Positions 27,358 through 41,800 of a stretch of DNA of 64,000 bases are shown here, one piece after another. This DNA comes from Zootoca vivipara (lineage: Eukaryota). The position numbers were made by a program, and so were the translations under genes. The notes beneath the pieces are model-generated. The model was not told the origin of the DNA. It saw only the letters and a list, made by a program, of their open reading frames with translations, and ran no database searches. How positions within the stretch are numbered: the first letter of the stretch is position 1; each line of letters starts with the position of its first letter. The stretch covers positions 18,476,001 to 18,540,000 of the forward strand of contig NC_083287.1 of the NCBI RefSeq assembly GCF_963506605.1, in the 5' to 3' direction.

Positions 27358-29169
27358 CGTATTAATGCCCACAATTAAGATTTGAAGCACTATTAAAGCT
27401 TAACTTTAATTTTGTGAGTAAATGAAACATTCCCAAACTGGGAAGAAAATCTTTTCATACTTTCAAATATAGCTCTCTCCTTGTGTGTGAGGGTGAACAT
27501 TTCTGTTATTACCAGTAGAATAATGTATAATATAAAAGATTATACCCCGGGGCATATTGTACCACTAGTGGATAAAAATGGCTGAACTCAGCTTTAGGGG
27601 AAAGAAGTGAGTGATAGATGAATCTCATTTTCTTTAAAGATAGAAAAGACCCAGAGGATTTAAATTATAGAGGTCTACAATTCTGTTAAACACAGGCTTG
27701 AATGTCTTACCAAAAATTGCTGCCCTGCACTCTGAATCTTTACTAGAGAAATCTATTTATTCCAATCAAACAGCTCTTATTTATTAAAAAAAAGTCCTTG
27801 ACAGCTTCTTCACTGTGTCTTCTTGGAATGGCTGAATCCTCTGCTTTAGTATCTCATGATGCAGCAAATATTGAGGCTCAGAGGTGGTATTGATCTTAGA
27901 CAATGAACTAGGACACGTACGAACCAAGAAGAAATTGCTTCTCTATCCCCCGTCCCAATAAGGAAACTAATGTTAATGATCTGGTGCCTTATCAATGGCT
28001 AAAGGTATCACGACTTCATGCAGCCAGAAAAATATATTGTAAACTTCCAGGTTTGGGGTGTGTGGGTGGTGCAATACTGTAACATGTGATAGGAATGTTG
28101 TGCAAAAGCTGTGTAACTTCACCATGAAACCTTTCCTTTTTTATGATGGTTTATAACTTTATGGTGCTGCACTGCCAGCTGAGCCTGAAAGTAGCATTTG
28201 CAAGCTGTATGTGGAACTGTAATGTCTATTGGAACTTTGTTTTTATATATTTTACAACTTGCATGCTTCTGTGCGCAACTGAAACTTCACAACCTTGCTG
28301 CTGTGTGGGTAAGGATGCATACTTGGGTGAGAAATGTGGGGTGGGAGTGGGGAAATAAGTGCTTCCACAATATCACCCGGGTTCTGATAAACTATCCTGT
28401 GTATCTTCTCACTATATTTATATTTGCATTATTGAAGGCTTCTCTCATCCTATAATAATAAAACAACTGATTAGATTGTGAGCTATCAGAAGAGCTACTT
28501 GCCTATTTTCCTGGGACAACGTAAAATCCCATTTATGAGCTTCACTGAAGTTTTTCTGATGCAATGTTCAAGTAAGGCTGCTTAGGATCACAGTCTGCAT
28601 CTGCTTTTTAATGTTTTTATTTGTGTGTTTTTACCCTCCACTGTTCTTGCTTTGTATTCTACCTACACTCAGTCGTACTGGAACTTTTATCTCAGCACAA
28701 CATGATATCCTTCTGTTTAATAGAGAGATTGAAATGGCAATCAATCGCACTGAATGTTTTTCTAATCTTGCTTATCGCTTTTAGCCTTTCACAATCTTTG
28801 TGTCTATTCTTACTGCTAAACCGCATCACATTGATAAATCTCATGTAAGGCTTTAGAAAATATTTTCCTCCCTGCCTAATAAACCATTAAGATAGCATCT
28901 CCTGTTCATTAGGGAGACAAGCATTCGGGGCTTCATATTGATGGATCTGCTTAACATTTAGTTATAGAAAATACCTGTGTCTCTTTCTTACTGTTGGCAA
29001 TAATGGGTAGCCAATCTGGAGATTCAGCTATGGTACTGTAGTAACTGTACCACCTAGGACCACATGGGAGAGGTTGCATGCTAAGCCATATTAATTCCTA
29101 TGAATATGAGCTGCATTAATACCTATAGTGGCATTATCACATTTTGTCTTTCTTACCTCTTATTCTAAA

Positions 29170-30085
29170 CTAGCTGTACCCTGCCACGCGTTGCAGTGCC
29201 CCCCAATCGGTCGGCATATCCCTGTGAGTGCTTTGATCCCCCTTCCTGTACCCCCCTCCTCCCCCCACCCCTAGGTTCATCTGTGTGACTCCCCCCACCC
29301 CCACCCTGCATCTTCCTGGTTCATCTCTGTGATTCCTGGCGGGGTCCGGTCTACCTCTGACCAGTGTGGTGGGGTTGTCAGTGTGGTCCGGTCTGTTTTG
29401 TGGTAGGGGAGGAGGCGGGTATCCTGGTCTCCATTGTGGAGGTGGTGGCGTCAGGGTCGGGGTCTGGCCTGGCTCACGGTGTGGGTCGGGCTCGTCCAGT
29501 CTGTCCCTTGGTTTGAGGGGGATTTGGCGTGGTGGTGGCAGTGGCGAGGGCTACGGACAGGGCTGCCTCCCTGGGAAGTCTAGGTCTTGGGTGGGCGTGT
29601 GGGCTGTGGAGTGGTCTGGTTTCCTGGATGGAGGTGGTTTCCTGGGGTGGCGAGGGATGGGGAGAGGCCTGGTCCCTGGTGGCGGCCTGGTCCCTGGTGG
29701 CGATGCGATCTCCGGGGTGGGCGAGGGCTGTGGAGCAGCCTGCTCCCTGGACGGTCTGGGATGGGGATCGGCCTGGTCTCAGGGTGGGCGTGGTCTATGG
29801 GGCGGGTTGTGTGTCGGGGTGCTGGGTTTGGATGGGGAGTGGGGGGGATTGTAGAAGTATTTTTGTCATGTGTGAGTTAGATGTCCACTGGAGGGTGCAA
29901 TTTTTAAAAACAAAAATCCAGGATTTTTACCTGTCCTAGGTTAGTTCTATCCAATGTAAGTGGATGGAAACACTCCCGTAGGGGAATGTGAGGTTGTGGC
30001 CAAATTTGAGAACGATTGGGTAAGCGGTTTCGGAGAACACTGTGTTTTAACAAACATGGACCTTCTACATTTATATATATATAGA
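29170..30085 (-). mobile_element. Non-autonomous Helitron
   Basis: Minus strand starts TCTATATATATATAAA and ends with a GC-rich imperfect hairpin plus GGGTACAGCTAG; inserted between A and T with no TSD. Confidence 0.75.
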
Positions 30086-33721: not shown

Positions 33722-33930
33722 ACAAAGCGCTTTATATCATATAATATAAAGCGGATTGTGGTAGGGCTGTTAAGAAATTTAGCTTAGGGTTTGGTTTGTG
33801 TAAGGCCACAGCTCATGCTGAGTAATGGGGGGCGTGTGTATGCAAATTCCTTGGATCTGATTGGTTGGTGGGGCCCCTCTTAAAGCTGCGTCCACCATTT
33901 TCTGGTCACATTTTTGCCTGGCGTTTGAAC
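33722..33930 (+). repeat. Split direct repeat A1 (209 bp)
   Basis: Identical by eye to 40725-40933. Confidence 0.95.
33815..33902 (+). promoter_or_regulatory. Putative Pol II promoter within repeat A
   Basis: TGCTGAGTAA, GC box GGGGCGTG, octamer ATGCAAAT (33840-33847), CTGATTGG (CCAAT box), CTTAAAG near 33880, CCATTTT. Confidence 0.55.
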
Positions 33931-34816
33931 TGTGTGTTTCTATCGGTTCCTGTCTGGCAAGAGAGCGTTCCTGGATTCCTGGAGTCTGGTTGTATCTGGC
34001 TTATTTAATTTGCTGATTTATTCAGCTTATTGCTTGCTTTTGATTTTTAGCTTTCATTTACTGCCTTATTTAGCTCCGTTTTGATTCTCCCCCTCCCCTC
34101 CCTCCCCACTCCCTTCCCCTACGGCTCGGCCTCGGCTAGGGGCGTTGGGAGTCCCCCCCCCCCGCACAGGCATCCCACTTTATTTAAAGGGCGCACCCCC
34201 CTTTAGATTCCTTTAAATTCTTTAAATTCCCCCCCCCGCTTGCCTTGGCTAGCCTGCTGTGGCTCTTGGTGGGCAAGGGGGCCTTGGTACCCTGAGGGAG
34301 CCTTGGCTCCTGGCTCCTTGCCTGGCCGTTTTCCTGCTGGGGCTGGGCTGGGCTGGGCTGGAGCCACGTGGGTGGTTAATAGGGCTGTTGCCGGCTGAGG
34401 AGCATTGAGGCTGCTTGCGCTCTGCTGGGGGCCTCTAATTTGGCTTATTGGGGGCTGTGGCGTTTGCCGCCCCCCCTGGGGTGCCTGCGGGGTGGGGGTG
34501 CATCATTGGGAGGGCGCCAGGCCGTTATTGTGCCTGGTTTGCACGCTGCGTCCGCCATTTTAATGCTTGCAACCCCCTTTGCTATTAAGCAGAGAGCTGC
34601 TGCTTGTGCATTGGGGGGAGCGGTTTGAGGGGGGTTGCTGGGTCTTTAGGACCTTGGGAGGGGGTCCCCTCACTTGATTCACCTGGGGGGCCTCTAGTTT
34701 TTGTGTCCTGTATAGCGTTTGTTTTCTGTTTGCATCTGTTTTAGCTGAGGAAAATTTTTTTTCCTGGCTGCAGTTTATTTCGAGGCTTGAGTGCTTGCAG
34801 CCAGTTTCTGGGCGTT

Positions 34817-34850
34817 TGGCGCCATCTACTGGCCACGAGTTGTTACTACA
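34817..34850 (-). promoter_or_regulatory. Putative CTCF site (core plus upstream motif)
   Basis: Minus strand TGTAGTAAC-N6-TGGCCAGTAGATGGCGCCA. Confidence 0.55.
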
Positions 34851-35648
34851 CCTACAAATTTAATTGCCTTTTCCCTCAGCCTATATTGAAGTCCCTTGAG
34901 CAGGCTTTGACTTTATTGTGTTGCCTGACTAGCTTATTGGGTCATTTTAACTTATTGGTTTCCTTTAATTACTTGATTTAATTTATATCCTTTTATTTAG
35001 GAATCTTAATTGATTCCATTGGATTATAATTGGCTTTGACCTGCGTGGGCTTGCTTTGGTTAAGTGAAAGGAAAAAACTTTTACTCCTTGCCTTTAATTG
35101 GAGGCCTGAGTACTGCAGCCTACTTTAGGTTCTCTATGCCATCGGCTGGCCTCAAGGGGGTTATCGCACCTTGTTAGTTTTGATACTGTTCCTTCCCAAT
35201 AGATAGGGAATACATTGCTTGGCCTGCGTTTTGGGTTTCTTGCATTGTTTAATTGGCTTAATTGATGTCCATTGTTTAATTCAATTTAATTTTAATTCAC
35301 GTTAATTTAGTTTTCACGTATTCTGGTTAAGGATTCTATTTGGTTGCGTGGGTGGGAGTTTGGCTTTGGCCTGCGCATTTCCCTCTCCCTCCCTTTTAGG
35401 GGGGGGGCCGGGGCGTGTGCCGGGGTCCGGCCTACACCAGCCTGCAATACAAGTCTAACTGATTTCCCTGGGGCCTTTCAGAGGCCTGGGTGTCCCCAAA
35501 TATTTTGCAGTTAGTTTTGCAGATTGGTTGGGAAGGCTCCAATATTTGAGGGGTGGGGTGACGCCGCCTAGTGGTTAAAGTGGTAATACGCACCCCTGTG
35601 TGATTCCACGTGTGTTTGCTTGTTATTCCAAGTAGTTAATAGTTCAGG

Positions 35649-37332
35649 ATGGCGGCCCACCCATCCACTTCAGGGAAATCTAAGAGGGTCATTAAGGGCG
35701 CTTCGCAGAAGCTGCGTTCGCCAGCCTCGCAGGCAGCGGGTCGCGTGGAAGCATTCATCGCTAGCATTGCTGGTGACCCACAGGCCCTGGCCCAGCTTGG
35801 ATCTGGGCTTGATGCCTTATTACAGAACCCGGCCTCTCATCCTGCCGCCTCGACCTCTGCTGGTTTACCTCTGGAAGCAGGGCGGGAGGCGGCGACTACG
35901 GCCATGCCTCCAGACCGGCAAGGCCCAGACCCTCTTTCTGCCCCCTCTACCTCTGCAGGTGTATCCCTGGACCCTGGGCAAGCTACGGTGGCGGCGTCGC
36001 AGCCTCTGTCCCCCATGGCGACCATTCTGGGACTGCCTGAGACCACCACGTCTGGGCCAGTTGACTCGTCGGATGACGACTTCGTGGGGCCTTCTGGTGT
36101 TCTGATGCCGAATGCCTCTTCCACTCCTATGGTGGTGCCGGCGCCCCCTCCCGTCAAACGACGAAGTGAGGGGAAGCAGCCTCGGCGCACCAGGAGGGCG
36201 AGGCAGGCTAAGGGCAGAGTAAGTGGGCAAGGGCAGGGGGGGGCGGACGGGGGCCTCCTCTAATGTTGTTGTTTCGCCCGTTGCTCCATCCCAGACTCTT
36301 GCCGTCGCCTCGCGGCGCGAGGGGCTTTCGTCGGCATCCGGCGAGGAAGCCCTCCCAGTGCCGGCTAGAGCGTCGAGTGGCGGAAAACGTCGTCACAAAA
36401 GTCGTTCCAGGAGGCGGGCAAAGAGGCGCAAGGACGATACCTCGGCTTCGACCACCTCAGGTTCGTCCTCTAGCTCCGAGGGTTCTGATCACTCTATGGG
36501 GTTGTACTGGGCTTACGGGGAAGTGGATTCTGGCCTTCCTCGTTGGGCCTGGGCTCGTCGAGCGAATTCGCATCGTGCTCGTTATGGAGCTGTTCAAGAA
36601 TGTCTCGACGGAGAGTTGGTCCCGGAAACCACGGTTTCCACCAACAGTACTAGGGATATTATTCCGGGCAGTCACTTGTCCTCTAAATTGAGGTCTAGGA
36701 TATTGGATGGTAAATAGGTAGACATTTTTGATTTAGCTCCACCAGAGGAGGTGGTCCCTGAGCAAGAAAACGCCCTCGTTGGTACTAAGAAGAAAGGCAG
36801 GGGGAGAAAGGTGGAGCGGACTTTCGAGCGTTGGCTCGATTGTTATCAAGTTTTTTCCGGGGTAGTAGTAGCGGCATATCCCCGCAGGGCTCTACACCTT
36901 ATCGTGTACCAGTCCATCGTAAGGTCAGCATATAACATGGCAGGGGAAGCGGCCGCAATTGCTTCTGATGAAAGATTTCGCAGGCGGGCGTCAAAAATTG
37001 ACACCGCCCGCTTTGACAGGAAAGACTTGGACCTTTGGACCACGTATGTGGCTCCGTCGGTTTCACGGAAACCCGCCGAGCAGCAAAGGGCTGAGACCCA
37101 GCCTTTTAAGGCGGCACCTAAATTGCGCTGCTGGGATTTCAATAAAGGACTGTGTCAGCGCCCGCGGTGTATTTATGCGCACACTTGTGACCGGTGTGGC
37201 GGTAGCCACCCGGCTGTTAACTGCTATGCGGGCCGGCGGCCCTTTCGTGGGGGTCGGGGAGGATTCAGGCAGGCGCCAAGGGGTTCCGCCCCTGCCCTCC
37301 CCGCTCCCCCCGCAGCTTCCACATCAAAGTGA
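35649..37332 (+). pseudogene. Ngaro gag-like ORF1, disrupted
   Basis: ATG at 35649; frameshift near the G8 run at 36236-36243; TAG at 36715-36717 in GK*VDIF; C-terminal zinc finger CWDFNKGLCQRPRCIYAHTCDRCGGSHPAVNC followed by RGG repeats. Confidence 0.82.
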
Positions 37333-38494
37333 ATTGCTTCAGTTAGCTTTTTCTCCCATTAAGTTACCGGCCCTTAAACATTGGTTAGCCTCCTATCCCA
37401 ATATTGAGGCGGCTGCATATCTTCGGGATGGTTTCTCCTTCGGGTTCCGGATTCCGATAGCTTCGGTTCCCCTGGCTAGGAATCCTAGGAATCAGAAGTC
37501 GGTGAGAGAGATGCACGAGGTCGCAAGGCGGAAGGTTAATAAAGAAATAGCCCTCCAGCGCATGGCTGGTCCTTTTGCGTCTCCGCCTTTTCCCAATCTG
37601 CACCTCTCTCCCTTGGGAATCGTCCCCAAGAAGGCTCCGGGTGAGTTTCGGCTCATTCATAATTTGTCTCACCCTAGGGACACGTCCGTGAACGACGTGA
37701 TCCCTCCGGAGCTTTGTACGGTCAAATACGCTTCTCTCGACCAGGCAATTAAAATGATCAGAAAGTTTGGGCCGGGGGCCTTGTTGGCAAAATGTGATAT
37801 CGAATCGGCTTTCCGATTATTACCAATTCATCCGCATGATTTTTGGTTGCTGGGCTTTCAGTTTGAAGGCGCCTATTATTTTGATAAGGCCATGCCAATG
37901 GGCTGCTCCGTAGCCTGTGCGGCCTTCGAGCGCTTATCGCAGGGTGAGAAGGCTGACATGAGGATGTGGCTGGTATTCCTGGAGGAATACAATGGGGTAT
38001 CCTTGTGGCAGGATGTTTTAAACCTGCACAACGATTTCCAAGTGCACTCCGATGCGGCGGGTTCCCTGGGATTTGGTTTGTTTTGGAATGGCAGGTGGTG
38101 CGCACAAAGATGGCCCCCTGCTTGGCGGGACACTGAAATCACGCGGGATTTAACTTTTCTTGAGTTCTTTCCTATAGCAGTTGCAGTCCATATTTGGGTT
38201 GACGACTTCAAGGACCGCCGCGTATGCTTTTGGTCAGATAACCAGGCTGTGGTGACTGTCCTTGCGAAACAATCTTCTAAGTCAACTCGGGTATCGGCTC
38301 TGCTGCGGGCATTCGTGCTGCAGTGCCTGCGTTTTAACATTATTTTCTCTGCGCGTTTTGTCCCGGGCGTGGCCAACGATATAGCTGACGCTTTGTCACG
38401 ATTTCAGATGGAGCGCTTCAGGTCCCTGGTTCCAGACGCACAACATCAGCCGGAGATTTTCCCGGATCGTCTTTGGAACCTTGGCAGCTGCTAG
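36959..38494 (+). pseudogene. Ngaro reverse transcriptase/RNase H with in-frame deletion of the RT catalytic region
   Basis: SPLGIVPKK..FRLIHNLS, AKCDIESAFRLLP and MPMGC present, but no YxDD; RNase H motifs SDA, LEF, SDN and ADALSR intact. Confidence 0.9.
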
Positions 38495-39387
38495 TCTTGC
38501 AGGGAGTAGCTGCTTCTGTTTCCCCCTCTACCCTGCGGGCTTATCAAAAAGCTTGGACTGACTTTTTAACTTTTCGCAGTCAGTCGCTCGCGGTGGAGGG
38601 AGCGGCCCGCCCCTCTTCTTCCCAGGTGCTTCAATATTTGGCACACCTGTTTCACCTGGGAAGGGCTGCCAGGACCATAAAGCTCCAGTCTGCGGCCATT
38701 TCATTTTTCTCGAAATTGTTTTTTAATAGGGACCCTTGCGCCAAATTTGTGGTGCGTAAGGCCATGGAGGGATGGGGTAGGCCTTGTCCTCCCCGTTCCC
38801 CTACCAGGAACCCGATTTCTTTTGATCTTCTCACTAAAATGAGATTGAAGCTTAGGGTGGTGTGTTGGTCTAAATATGAGGCCCGTTTGTTTTCGGCCGC
38901 CTTCTCAGTGGCCTTTTTTGGCGCTTTGAGAATTGGTGAAATTGTAGGGGGTCAGATGCGTCAGGGGGTGCCAGGGGGTTTGCTACTCCAGGACATACGT
39001 CTGTCGCCAACGGAATTGTTAATCACGATTCGGAGTTCCAAGACCGACCAGGCTGGTAAAGGAGCAGTAATGCGACTGCCTGCTACGGGGCAGACGGGCC
39101 CCTGCCCGGTTAAGGACGTAGCCAAATTCTTGGCGGAAAGGCCAGCTGGGGAGGGCCCCTTGTTTGTGCATCAGGATGGTAACCCGATGACTAGGCTGCA
39201 ATTTACTAGAGTTATGAGGAAGGTGATAGCGGCATGCGGTTGCGTGGCCGCTAATTACGCTCCTCATTCCTTTCGCATTGGGGCCGCCACTACGGCGGCC
39301 CACTGGGGTCTTTCGGTTGATGCTATTAAGGATTTGGGCAGGTGGAAATCTGCAGCGTATAGATCTTATGTTCGGAAGCGCTCCTAA
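38473..39387 (+). CDS. Tyrosine recombinase (start uncertain, no ATG)
   Basis: ALRIGE (R), SKTDQ (K), HSFRIG (HxxR), LGRWKS (W), YRSYVR (Y); N-terminal STLRAYQKAW. Confidence 0.92.
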   Translation: MEPWQLLVLQGVAASVSPSTLRAYQKAWTDFLTFRSQSLAVEGAARPSSSQVLQYLAHLFHLGRAARTIKLQSAAISFFSKLFFNRDPCAKFVVRKAMEGWGRPCPPRSPTRNPISFDLLTKMRLKLRVVCWSKYEARLFSAAFSVAFFGALRIGEIVGGQMRQGVPGGLLLQDIRLSPTELLITIRSSKTDQAGKGAVMRLPATGQTGPCPVKDVAKFLAERPAGEGPLFVHQDGNPMTRLQFTRVMRKVIAACGCVAANYAPHSFRIGAATTAAHWGLSVDAIKDLGRWKSAAYRSYVRKRS

Positions 39388-39396
39388 CTTTGTCGT

Positions 39397-39993
39397 TTGT
39401 TTTCCAATGTTTTCCCAGGGCTCGCGGACGTGCACATATGGATGGTGGGACATTCCATAGTCCATTGGGCAGGCCTTCGCGCTGGCCAAACGCCATTGGG
39501 TCCTCGACTTGGCCTTCCATCCAACATCCAAGTGACCTGGATGGGCAAGAGGGGCATGCGCTGGGGGGAGCTTCTCCCTTTGCTGCGGCGCAAAGCCCTC
39601 TTGCTCGGGTGCCCGTCCGCCCTGGTGATCCAGCTGGGAGAAAATGACATCCCCGCTGTGGACCCGTTATCTCTTCGCCTGGCTATCCTACGAGATTTGT
39701 TGGAGATAAGGACTTGGTTCCCTGATACCGTCGTTTTTTGGTCCCAAATGTTGCAGAGGATGCAATGGCGGGGTGATATTCCTCCTCTGGCTGGGGAAAG
39801 AGCTAGGAAGAGGGTTAACAGCGCAGCATCCAAACGGGTGTACGAAATCGGGGGGAGTTTGATTCGTCATCCCGCAATTAATGTTAGAGCCCCGCTTTTA
39901 TATCGGGATGATGGGGTTCACTTATCCCCTGATGGGTATGACATTTGGCTGCGTGATGTGTCTGAGGGTTTAAAAAGTTGGTTAGGTCTCTGA
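39397..39993 (+). CDS. SGNH/GDSL-family hydrolase (start uncertain, probably spliced)
   Basis: Block I VGHSIV, block II GKRG, block III LGEND, block V DGVH. Confidence 0.88.
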   Translation: MFSNVFPGLADVHIWMVGHSIVHWAGLRAGQTPLGPRLGLPSNIQVTWMGKRGMRWGELLPLLRRKALLLGCPSALVIQLGENDIPAVDPLSLRLAILRDLLEIRTWFPDTVVFWSQMLQRMQWRGDIPPLAGERARKRVNSAASKRVYEIGGSLIRHPAINVRAPLLYRDDGVHLSPDGYDIWLRDVSEGLKSWLGL

Positions 39994-40022
39994 GTGTTGG
40001 CGGCAAGCCAGGGCTGGCTTGA

Positions 40023-40728
40023 TTGGCGGTTAGGCTTTTGGTTGGTTAATCGGTTGGTAGAGGGGGTGGCACACGGATGCCTACCCTCACCTCCGTTTGC
40101 TCCATATAGAAGTATTCCGTTAAAGGAATCTCGGGGCTTACACTCTTGTCCTTACCATCCCGCCATTGGCGGGAATGGTGGGCCCAATTTTAAGAGCAAG
40201 AGCCTTGAGGAACATTCTTGGTGAAGGTGAGGAGGGAATGACTGGGCGCAGCCACCTCCTCACTCCCAGGTATGTTTACTTGACTTCCATGCGGAAGTCG
40301 GAGCAGGAACTGTCCAAGCGGACAGTGGTGAGTCCTGTCCTATGGTGACAGCTGATGTGAGTCCTGCCACGTGGGCAGATGAGGTGAGTCCTGTCCAATG
40401 GTGACAGCTGATGTGAGTCCTGCCACGTGGGCAGATGAGGTGAGTCCTGTCCAATGGTGACAGCTGATGTGAGTCCTGCCACGTGGGGCAGATGAGGTGA
40501 GTCCTGTCCTAAGGGGACAGCTGATTGAGTCCTGTCCTGGATGGACAGATGGGGATAGTCCTTCTTTAGGAAGGACGAGTGAATAACCAAAAGCCTAAGC
40601 CAACACTCGGATTAAATTGTGTATTTAATAAAGTTGTGGCCCTAAATTATTTGCCAAAAACCAAACCATAATTCTGTTGTCAGTTGTGAGTTATTTAAGG
40701 TAATTTTCTGGGAAGCCTCGACACACAA
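40023..40728 (+). repeat. Split direct repeat B1 (706 bp)
   Basis: Identical by eye to 41095-41800 (offset 1072); AATAAA at 40627-40632. Confidence 0.95.
40309..40576 (+). repeat. Tandem hairpin array in B1 (alternating 29/27-bp units, 56-bp period)
   Basis: Repeated GTGAGTC-CTGYC-loop-GRCAG. Confidence 0.9.
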
Positions 40729-40933
40729 AGCGCTTTATATCATATAATATAAAGCGGATTGTGGTAGGGCTGTTAAGAAATTTAGCTTAGGGTTTGGTTT
40801 GTGTAAGGCCACAGCTCATGCTGAGTAATGGGGGGCGTGTGTATGCAAATTCCTTGGATCTGATTGGTTGGTGGGGCCCCTCTTAAAGCTGCGTCCACCA
40901 TTTTCTGGTCACATTTTTGCCTGGCGTTTGAAC
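40725..40933 (+). repeat. Split direct repeat A2
   Basis: Copy of 33722-33930; overlaps B1 by ACAA. Confidence 0.95.
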
Positions 40934-41094
40934 CCCTCCCACCCGCCCTTTCTTTCTTGCAGGTTAGCACGACATTGCTATTGCCTTCGGGGCCGCCTGT
41001 ATTCAGGGGTCAGTAGGAATTTTTCCAATTGGCTGATTGGCTGTGCCTCTTGGTTTTCGCCTACTGCGCTAGCAAATTGTCACAACTTGTTAGG

Positions 41095-41800
41095 TTGGCG
41101 GTTAGGCTTTTGGTTGGTTAATCGGTTGGTAGAGGGGGTGGCACACGGATGCCTACCCTCACCTCCGTTTGCTCCATATAGAAGTATTCCGTTAAAGGAA
41201 TCTCGGGGCTTACACTCTTGTCCTTACCATCCCGCCATTGGCGGGAATGGTGGGCCCAATTTTAAGAGCAAGAGCCTTGAGGAACATTCTTGGTGAAGGT
41301 GAGGAGGGAATGACTGGGCGCAGCCACCTCCTCACTCCCAGGTATGTTTACTTGACTTCCATGCGGAAGTCGGAGCAGGAACTGTCCAAGCGGACAGTGG
41401 TGAGTCCTGTCCTATGGTGACAGCTGATGTGAGTCCTGCCACGTGGGCAGATGAGGTGAGTCCTGTCCAATGGTGACAGCTGATGTGAGTCCTGCCACGT
41501 GGGCAGATGAGGTGAGTCCTGTCCAATGGTGACAGCTGATGTGAGTCCTGCCACGTGGGGCAGATGAGGTGAGTCCTGTCCTAAGGGGACAGCTGATTGA
41601 GTCCTGTCCTGGATGGACAGATGGGGATAGTCCTTCTTTAGGAAGGACGAGTGAATAACCAAAAGCCTAAGCCAACACTCGGATTAAATTGTGTATTTAA
41701 TAAAGTTGTGGCCCTAAATTATTTGCCAAAAACCAAACCATAATTCTGTTGTCAGTTGTGAGTTATTTAAGGTAATTTTCTGGGAAGCCTCGACACACAA
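41095..41800 (+). repeat. Split direct repeat B2 (hairpin array at 41381-41648; AATAAA at 41699-41704)
   Basis: Copy of B1; ends in ACAA. Confidence 0.95.

Follow-up and report, generated by a model that had tools for sequence, protein, structure and literature searches.

Retroviral env and the pol/gag of copia-type elements are the familiar cases of subgenomic splicing, in which one promoter is used, the 3' genes are read from spliced RNAs and the unspliced RNA serves both as genome and as gag-pol message. The retrotransposons encoding a tyrosine recombinase (YR) carry three or four overlapping open reading frames (ORFs), and the sections of the literature available to our search are silent on how the downstream ones are translated. 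Here we describe such an element in a window of 64,000 nucleotides (nt) of the lizard Zootoca vivipara (contig NC_083287.1, positions 18,476,001 to 18,540,000 of the forward strand; positions below are those of this whole stretch). Its closest described relatives by layout are DIRS-53_XT and DIRS-54_XT of Xenopus, Ngaro-like elements with an SGNH ORF, with which it shares the repeat arrangement A1...B1 A2 B2, the order of overlapping gag, reverse transcriptase (RT)/RNase H, YR and SGNH frames and the fact that no methyltransferase was found (PMC9210276, available sections). In those sections the hydrolase has no proven function and neither splicing nor frameshifting is mentioned; in the lizard element the route to the hydrolase is seen in RNA, and those to YR and RT are predicted. 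The element type is known, and the novelty lies in the frameshift motif, in the joint seen in RNA and in the tests at codon level. No report of a splicing or frameshift site in Ngaro elements was found in the literature searched, which comprised available portions of papers without the two central Ngaro papers, Repbase and supplements, and an earlier mention is possible; the accessible part of PMC5009743 mentions neither DIRS nor Ngaro.

Splice motifs are frequent in this pyrimidine-rich element. Among the 161 YAG sites in 33722-40010, 15 have at least 15 pyrimidines in the preceding 20 nt, and in 33722-36720 there are 9 GT sites that agree with the U1 consensus at 6/9 or better. Because of this frequency the motifs of one copy alone are weak evidence, and therefore each site was judged by reads, gene models and conservation. 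The RNA data came from 4 of 15 listed runs (raw runs X12, X13 and X14, chosen by species label, and the contig set X1), with about 6% of each raw run, and reads were aligned to an undeleted copy of the element (L035:975-8020). Conservation was followed in 13 subfamily representatives, which are the clusters at 95% RT identity of 37 open-frame copies, and in a distant set of 97 loci in metagenome and genome contigs (72 clusters, RT 37-50% identical), of which 31 clusters passed the filter for the frameshift-motif test and 18 that for the recombinase-acceptor test. Ngaro-like elements with the same signals (L199-L216) also stand in contigs filed as bacterial metagenome genomes, several of them of animal symbionts; these contigs are likely host DNA in bacterial bins.

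Four joints were listed in the RNA, and only one has GT..AG ends: L035 3720>7120, which corresponds to 36460>39419 of the window. It is carried by six X12 reads with three different starts, all oriented like most other reads, and by one contig of X1, from another study. The segment 36461-39418 is present in the DNA and removed in the RNA, as expected of a U2-type intron with such ends. The 5' exon measures 811 nt from the ATG, and the joint, phase 1 to phase 1, places Gag residues 1-270 in frame with SGNH. In X12 the gag 5' exon is covered to a depth of 8-29 and the bin where the hydrolase exon starts to 17; the first half of RT has 0.1-0.3. RefSeq holds one 461-residue Gag-hydrolase product under more than 10 accessions, with the same junction as the RNA, and models with the homologous junction are found in a 63% subfamily and in Podarcis. 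The initial annotation of this DNA had pointed to a CTAAC branch motif (39384-39388), a U-rich tract and a phase-1 CAG at 39417-39418 before the hydrolase; all of these are in place and the acceptor is used in RNA, and the junction x>39419 that it proposed to look for was found with x = 36460. Its three candidate phase-1 donors (35959, 36461 and 36710) are also present, and the one at 36461 is that joined to 39419. The other two were rejected as shared donors, being absent from distant subfamilies; 36710 adjoins the premature stop at 36715-36717.

The signals of this joint are conserved. A phase-1 donor lies 41-50 nt upstream of the gag YW motif in 12 of the 13 representatives, and the thirteenth has a phase-1 donor matching at 8/9 further up. 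The hydrolase acceptor is a phase-1 YAG in all 27 resolved copies (of 36), with 8 more by eye. In the 11 distant families whose hydrolase start can be resolved, a phase-1 YAG always lies 5-20 nt upstream of the first hydrolase motif (three sites fall in the other two phases), and 8 of the 11 have no Met at that start. Read-through from YR into the hydrolase is ruled out because the spacer between the YR stop and the acceptor, 25-61 nt long, takes all three frames. Taken together, we consider it nearly certain that the hydrolase is expressed by splicing of the 36461 donor to the 39417-39418 acceptor.

Several points weigh against this reading. The joint was not seen in X13 (294 reads aligned) or X14 (45), so one of three raw runs is positive, and X1 is taken as RNA by guess only. 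At the 40 diagnostic letters the reads agree best with locus L058, in 34, against 6 for the window copy. In L058 gag is broken and the frameshift motif described below is missing; the sites are therefore shown to work, not to be used by an active element. The 13 representatives come from one genome and are related, so that 13/13 does not stand for 13 independent trials, and the gene models are predictions only. That the reads are few and come from a broken copy would also suit functionless cryptic splicing in decaying copies. Such an explanation seems extremely improbable and is largely refuted already by conservation, since donor, acceptor and phase are kept out to families at 37-47% RT identity and the spacer indels leave no read-through from YR. 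No spliced retrocopies were found in the own genome among the scored matches (40 of 74 and 30 of 30 candidates scored); the 30 scored near-identical hydrolase exons all share their place with the recombinase and none adjoins the donor exon.

Two further observations concern these splice sites. A host-like gene model of 1030 residues (P0004) has a terminal hydrolase entered exactly at the exon start, and the acceptor may, according to this model, be used by a host transcript. In L106, L107, L109 and L113 a second donor-like site (7/9, phase 1) lies about 14 nt upstream of the gag stop and could join nearly full-length Gag to YR or to the hydrolase.

For the recombinase, the acceptor proposed at the outset (CTGAC...TTTCAG, AG at 38406-38407, phase 1, served by the shared donor) is present as a motif and is backed by conservation and gene models; the reads lack the joint. 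Its AG falls in an RNase H codon, the one for Gln in the motif ADALSRFQ. This codon is CAG in 13 of 13 representatives; as a control, a single codon is kept in 1 of 7 invariant Gln columns of RT. Where the 18 distant families have a Gln here (17 sites), CAG is used at 16 (background 0.44, p 1.7e-5); the remaining two families, one with CAA and one with Lys, each carry an in-phase CAG two codons downstream. The YR frame opens 7-11 codons upstream of the acceptor and is open throughout the overlap in 22 of 22 resolved copies, its first Met standing 22-145 codons downstream of the acceptor across copies (119 codons in the window). The 20 nt preceding the site contain 13 pyrimidines in the window. 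In two models from two Podarcis species (P0018, P0020) a basic, Ser-rich, Gag-like N-terminus is joined at the YR acceptor; P0017 enters it from RT. On these grounds the acceptor leading to 38408 is probably used, with 36461 as the shared donor.

This prediction has its own difficulties: the acceptor coincides in part with a conserved motif of RNase H, no Gag-recombinase gene model was found for the window's own family, and no joint into 38408 is among the RNA joints listed, with a depth there of about 3. They would be accommodated if the recombinase were made without splicing, either through a -1 shift at the end of RNase H or from a non-AUG start, with CAG kept for protein reasons; moreover, the overlap of 28-30 codons would be open by chance with p of about 0.14 per lineage. 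We regard this as improbable. No slippery heptamer X_XXY_YYZ was found at the RNase H/YR overlap in the 22 copies checked, the two Podarcis models use the acceptor, and the preference for CAG over CAA is far above background, with the in-phase rescue CAG where it is lost.

A different route is suggested for RT. In influenza A, PA-X is made by a +1 shift on UUU_C at UCC_UUU_CGU, with an efficiency of about 1.3%, as shown by mass spectrometry; CGN is preferred, and CCC in place of UCC reduces the shift by 40-70% without abolishing it (PMC3498833, available sections). The UUU_CGN shift was extended to sites before the polymerases of plant amalgaviruses, where the same signal joins ORF1 to the polymerase (PMC5052127, available sections). 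The lizard site resembles both in UUU_C followed by CGN, in the C-ending codon before it (UCC or CCC) and in the downstream ORF in +1; it differs in that the predicted site lies in a retrotransposon, between gag and RT, a setting for which the available sections of those papers give no case.

Relative to gag, RT is in frame +1 in 25 of the 36 lizard copies and, among the distant families, in 30 of 31; the motif lies about 60 codons upstream of the RT anchor. YCC_TTT_CGN is found in 61 of 65 copies, with the last base free and all four bases used. In the +1-related copies the shifted frame reaches RT without a stop, leaving aside L060 with its upstream indel, and the gag stop is fixed 97-103 nt before the RT anchor, with one exception. 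Among the gag columns with an invariant residue in the 13 representatives, only 2 of 77 have an invariant codon, and these are the TTT of the motif and the Gly after CGN; the RT control gave 6 of 256 columns (Phe columns, 2 of 23). The residues of the RT-frame linker vary freely, so the protein in that frame is not the cause of the invariance. UUU_CGN is thus found in the upstream frame within an open +1 overlap, with synonymous-site conservation over background, as in sites of the PA-X type.

In the distant +1 families TTT_CGN occurs within the overlap in 12 of 30 against 3.9 expected (12/30 with the wider anchor; 5/18 with a stricter filter), namely in 9 of 14 with the hydrolase and 3 of 16 without it. 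With amino acids and family codon use fixed, it is found in 12 of the 14 families having a Phe-Arg pair, where 6.6 are expected (p 0.0014). The exact influenza sequence UCC_UUU_CGU is present in the distant locus L202 and in several lizard subfamilies. A trace in the RT frame, PF[VAEGD], was detected in 11 of 44 database proteins, always 57-67 residues before the anchor. We therefore consider a +1 ribosomal frameshift at CCC_UUU_CGU (37240-37248) the predicted source of RT, with somewhat better than even confidence.

Against it stand the 33 database RT proteins of 44 without that trace, the lack of the motif in 18 of the 30 distant +1 families, and the stimulatory structure: no general conserved 3' hairpin was found, z being below -2.8 in 3 of 14 folded copies and -2.8 in the window. 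RNA reads, in addition, cannot reveal a frameshift. Families without TTT_CGN would fit a hydrolase made by splicing and an RT made in another manner, by a +1 shift elsewhere (e.g., at the gag stop), by reinitiation or from an internal ATG, the motif being kept as a packaging signal or for a Phe-Arg-Gly peptide. The gag stop does lie at its fixed place just upstream of the first conserved RT residues, and in-frame ATGs are present upstream of the conserved part of RT (36968, 37046, 37175 and 37226 in the window). The early claim that no downstream ORF has a suitable ATG accordingly needs correction for RT; it holds for YR, with its first at 38764, and for SGNH, whose ATG at 39442 falls within the first catalytic block. 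However, the codons preceding the gag stop vary, and the RT ATGs are not conserved, the first Met falling, depending on the copy, between codons 1 and 145 of the open frame. The invariance is limited to YCC_TTT_CG with the next base free, which matches the expectation for the viral motif, and the enrichment of TTT_CGN persists with amino acids fixed. We thus hold these other routes to be unlikely.

Through indels in the G and C runs of the gag/RT linker (37250-37312 in the window), 7 of 36 copies (L048, L064, L067, L082-L084 and L087) have gag fused in frame to RT, and in 4 (L047, L085, L086 and L090) the two are shifted the other way. An in-frame fusion as the natural state was rejected, as the fused and the oppositely shifted copies at homopolymer runs fit an indel hot spot. 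Two of the fused copies, L082 and L083, are almost identical and lie on different contigs.

It was also proposed that RT, like the other two genes, is reached by splicing, from a donor AGA/GTAAGT at 36219, after gag codon 190, to a CAG at 37314-37315 in phase 0. The motifs are in place and the joint would be in frame; the splice itself is unsupported. The donor occurs in 1 of 13 representatives (it is absent in L060 and L064-L067), and three models pair it with 36295, removing a small in-frame intron within gag that ends at 36293-36294. The tract before the CAG has 17 pyrimidines of 20, with only 3 U and no branch motif in the window. It is U-poor in all copies (5/20 at most), falls to 8-9 pyrimidines of 20 in 10 copies, is followed by no CAG in 6, encodes the Pro/Ala tail of gag and can pair with a G-rich run upstream. 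An RT splice is favored by two observations: 33 of 39 copies have a phase-0 CAG no more than 6 nt from 37314, and in three sister-subfamily models (P0031, P0158, P0159) the shared phase-1 donor is spliced into RT at a phase-1 TAG 50 nt before the RT anchor; the read depth at 37316, 0.16, is too low for exclusion. However, the sister acceptor is absent in L087-L090 and its use would remove conserved RT residues, and no AG of either phase near the RT start is common to all subfamilies. That all three downstream genes are spliced, RT via 36219>37316 or via the shared donor and an AG near its start, is in our opinion doubtful. The conserved +1 motif explains RT better than the 36218>37316 splice, and for RT the early preference for splicing over frameshifting is likely mistaken.

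The coordinates of the features are collected in Table 1.

Table 1. Features of the Ngaro-type element and of its expression signals in the Zootoca vivipara window.
Feature	Position	Strand	Evidence or remark
Ngaro-type YR retrotransposon, whole copy, defective	33722..41800	+	Split direct repeats; copies in own genome; common 4-nt core at ends and B-A junction
Repeat A1	33722..33930	+	100% identity to A2
gag-like ORF, C-terminal CCCH-type finger	35649..37332	+	Broken at 36236-43 (frameshift) and 36715-17 (stop)
Donor AGA/GTAAGT, intron from 36219, family-specific	36216..36224	+	Models P0001, P0156, P0157 join to 36295, not RT
Acceptor of small gag-internal intron, AG 36293-94	36270..36294	+	Gene models only; not among RNA joints listed
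Main shared donor CAG/GTTCGT, phase 1, after gag codon 270	36458..36466	+	RNA joint; 12/13 subfamily representatives
RT/RNase H open frame, gag +1	36923..38494	+	YxDD lost here via 441-nt deletion at 37929/30
Predicted +1 frameshift site CCC_UUU_CGU, gag frame	37240..37248	+	61/65 copies; codon-invariance control; distant families; motif class PMC3498833 (available sections)
RT acceptor of the initial annotation, C-rich tract and CAG	37291..37315	+	Unsupported as acceptor
Predicted YR acceptor, AG 38406-07, phase 1, within RNase H coding end	38384..38407	+	Conservation; models P0017, P0018, P0020
Tyrosine recombinase (YR) ORF, no usable ATG	38389..39387	+	Pfam PF00589, PF02899, both slightly below curated cut-offs
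Hydrolase acceptor: CTAAC branch motif on YR stop, U-rich tract, CAG	39384..39418	+	RNA joint; conservation
SGNH/GDSL hydrolase exon	39419..39993	+	Pfam PF13472, E 4e-5, below curated cut-off; models P0002, P0151
Repeat B1, internal 56-nt tandem units	40023..40728	+	Repeat comparison
Repeat A2	40725..40933	+	Repeat comparison
Repeat B2	41095..41800	+	Repeat comparison

The analysis has shown the RNA joint to the hydrolase, the frame of that joint and that all signals are conserved. The whole scheme, with the mid-gag donor leading to the hydrolase and likely to the recombinase and with RT by a predicted +1 frameshift, is the one we moderately favor. From a single promoter and a single ATG four proteins would be obtained: Gag itself, Gag-RT/RNase H as a rare product, Gag(1-270)-recombinase and Gag(1-270)-hydrolase. 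The unspliced RNA would serve for Gag and as genome and, by a +1 slip near the gag end, for a little Gag-RT/RNase H; splicing from the mid-gag donor 36461 would give Gag(1-270)-YR (38408) and Gag(1-270)-hydrolase (39419). The idea of retrovirus-like subgenomic mRNAs for the three ORFs has, in this scheme, RNA evidence for the hydrolase and conservation and gene models only for the recombinase, and it does not extend to RT. In contrast to retroviral and copia-type splicing, the lizard donor lies 270 codons into gag, so that each 3' gene is fused to a long piece of Gag and needs no ATG of its own, and the integrating enzyme would be a spliced product. Yeast Ty1 and Ty3 (cited in PMC3498833 and PMC5052127, available sections) likewise make a Gag-RT fusion by a +1 shift on unspliced RNA, with another motif (CUU_AGG_C in Ty1) and with a DDE integrase within Pol.

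All models examined show a run rich in Arg/Lys at the end of the shared Gag head, immediately upstream of the donor. This head could act as an RNA-binding or nuclear-targeting tail, or target both enzymes to the particle. The ORF1 protein of ZfL2-1, of the CR1-clade long interspersed nuclear elements (LINEs), carries an SGNH esterase immediately preceded by an Arg-rich motif, the arrangement also of the spliced Gag-hydrolase, and its esterase binds phospholipids (PMC3905857, available sections). ZfL2-1 differs in being a LINE in which both parts belong to a single ORF, and the likeness is one of layout, with no sequence match shown; a PDB search with the hydrolase gave no match at E 0.1.

Exact, testable expression sites are now given for each downstream ORF. 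If the scheme is true, it accounts for the expression of all three ORFs that lack a start of their own; recombinase and hydrolase would both carry a 270-residue Gag head with its Arg/Lys-rich run, and the Gag-headed hydrolase would resemble the ORF1 proteins of CR1-clade LINEs, in which an Arg motif is combined with an esterase. Were UUU_CGN to direct a +1 shift in animal genomes, the viral signal would also belong to a mobile element that is widespread and offers many natural variants. Spliced transposon RNAs would account for a class of gene models labelled "uncharacterized LOC". That hydrolase-bearing Ngaro elements, from lizards to very distant families, obey one code (mid-gag splicing to YR and hydrolase, and a PA-X-type +1 shift for RT, its first use in a retrotransposon) we put at slightly less than an even chance.

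By its repeat layout and ORF content the element is of the Ngaro type; PAT-like elements have the same repeat layout. The window copy has the split direct repeats A1...B1 A2 B2 and the ORF order gag-like, RT/RNase H, YR, with Pfam scores slightly below the curated cut-offs in this deleted copy; YxDD is kept in other copies of the family. A scan of six frames detected no methyltransferase domain, and PF13472 only on the hydrolase, which follows YR. The 4-nt core is identical at both ends and at the B-A junction, as tabulated for the window copy. The own genome contains at least 30 copies at 96-100% identity (40 of 237 candidates scored) as well as many subfamilies, with gag identity down to 32-57%, and the database proteins at 99-100% identity to those of the window come from Zootoca vivipara.

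In most near copies gag is a single open frame of about 560 codons. Its two lesions in the window, a frameshift in the G run and a premature stop, are common to L031 and L032. The 441-nt deletion in RT is present in 8 near-identical copies (the window, L031, L032, L040, L041, L042, L044 and L046). An excised intron was rejected as its origin: its ends are not GT..AG in any register, and microhomology is found at the ends. Because the window copy is unable to make an RT with YxDD and this form nevertheless has 8 copies, it is non-autonomous and likely mobilised in trans; action in trans has been reported for the RT of DIRS-1 (PMC7192593, available sections).

Repeat B has imperfect inverted ends of 23 nt at 40030-40052 and 40576-40598, and its 56-nt tandem units, at 40327-40560, differ in number among copies. 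Over L035 982-1444 (window 33724-34180), 55 reads of X12 place the end of repeat B before repeat A; only 5 continue into the A2-B2 spacer, and the depth goes on into the leader. These reads may reflect RNA that spans a junction of B, A and leader, either from tandem copies (L038 and L039 are in tandem) or from a circular form.

In several subfamilies with unrelated leaders a YAG stands 1-14 nt upstream of the gag ATG (35646-35648 in the window), though not in the L098-L115 group. It is possible that a 5' leader intron ends just before this ATG; with 10 pyrimidines in 20 nt the window has a weak acceptor there, the leader donors all score below 7/9, and the X1 contig reads through the site. Finally, a short GC-rich stretch with strong T and G skew, of a composition like that of the leader, is located within 29001-30000.

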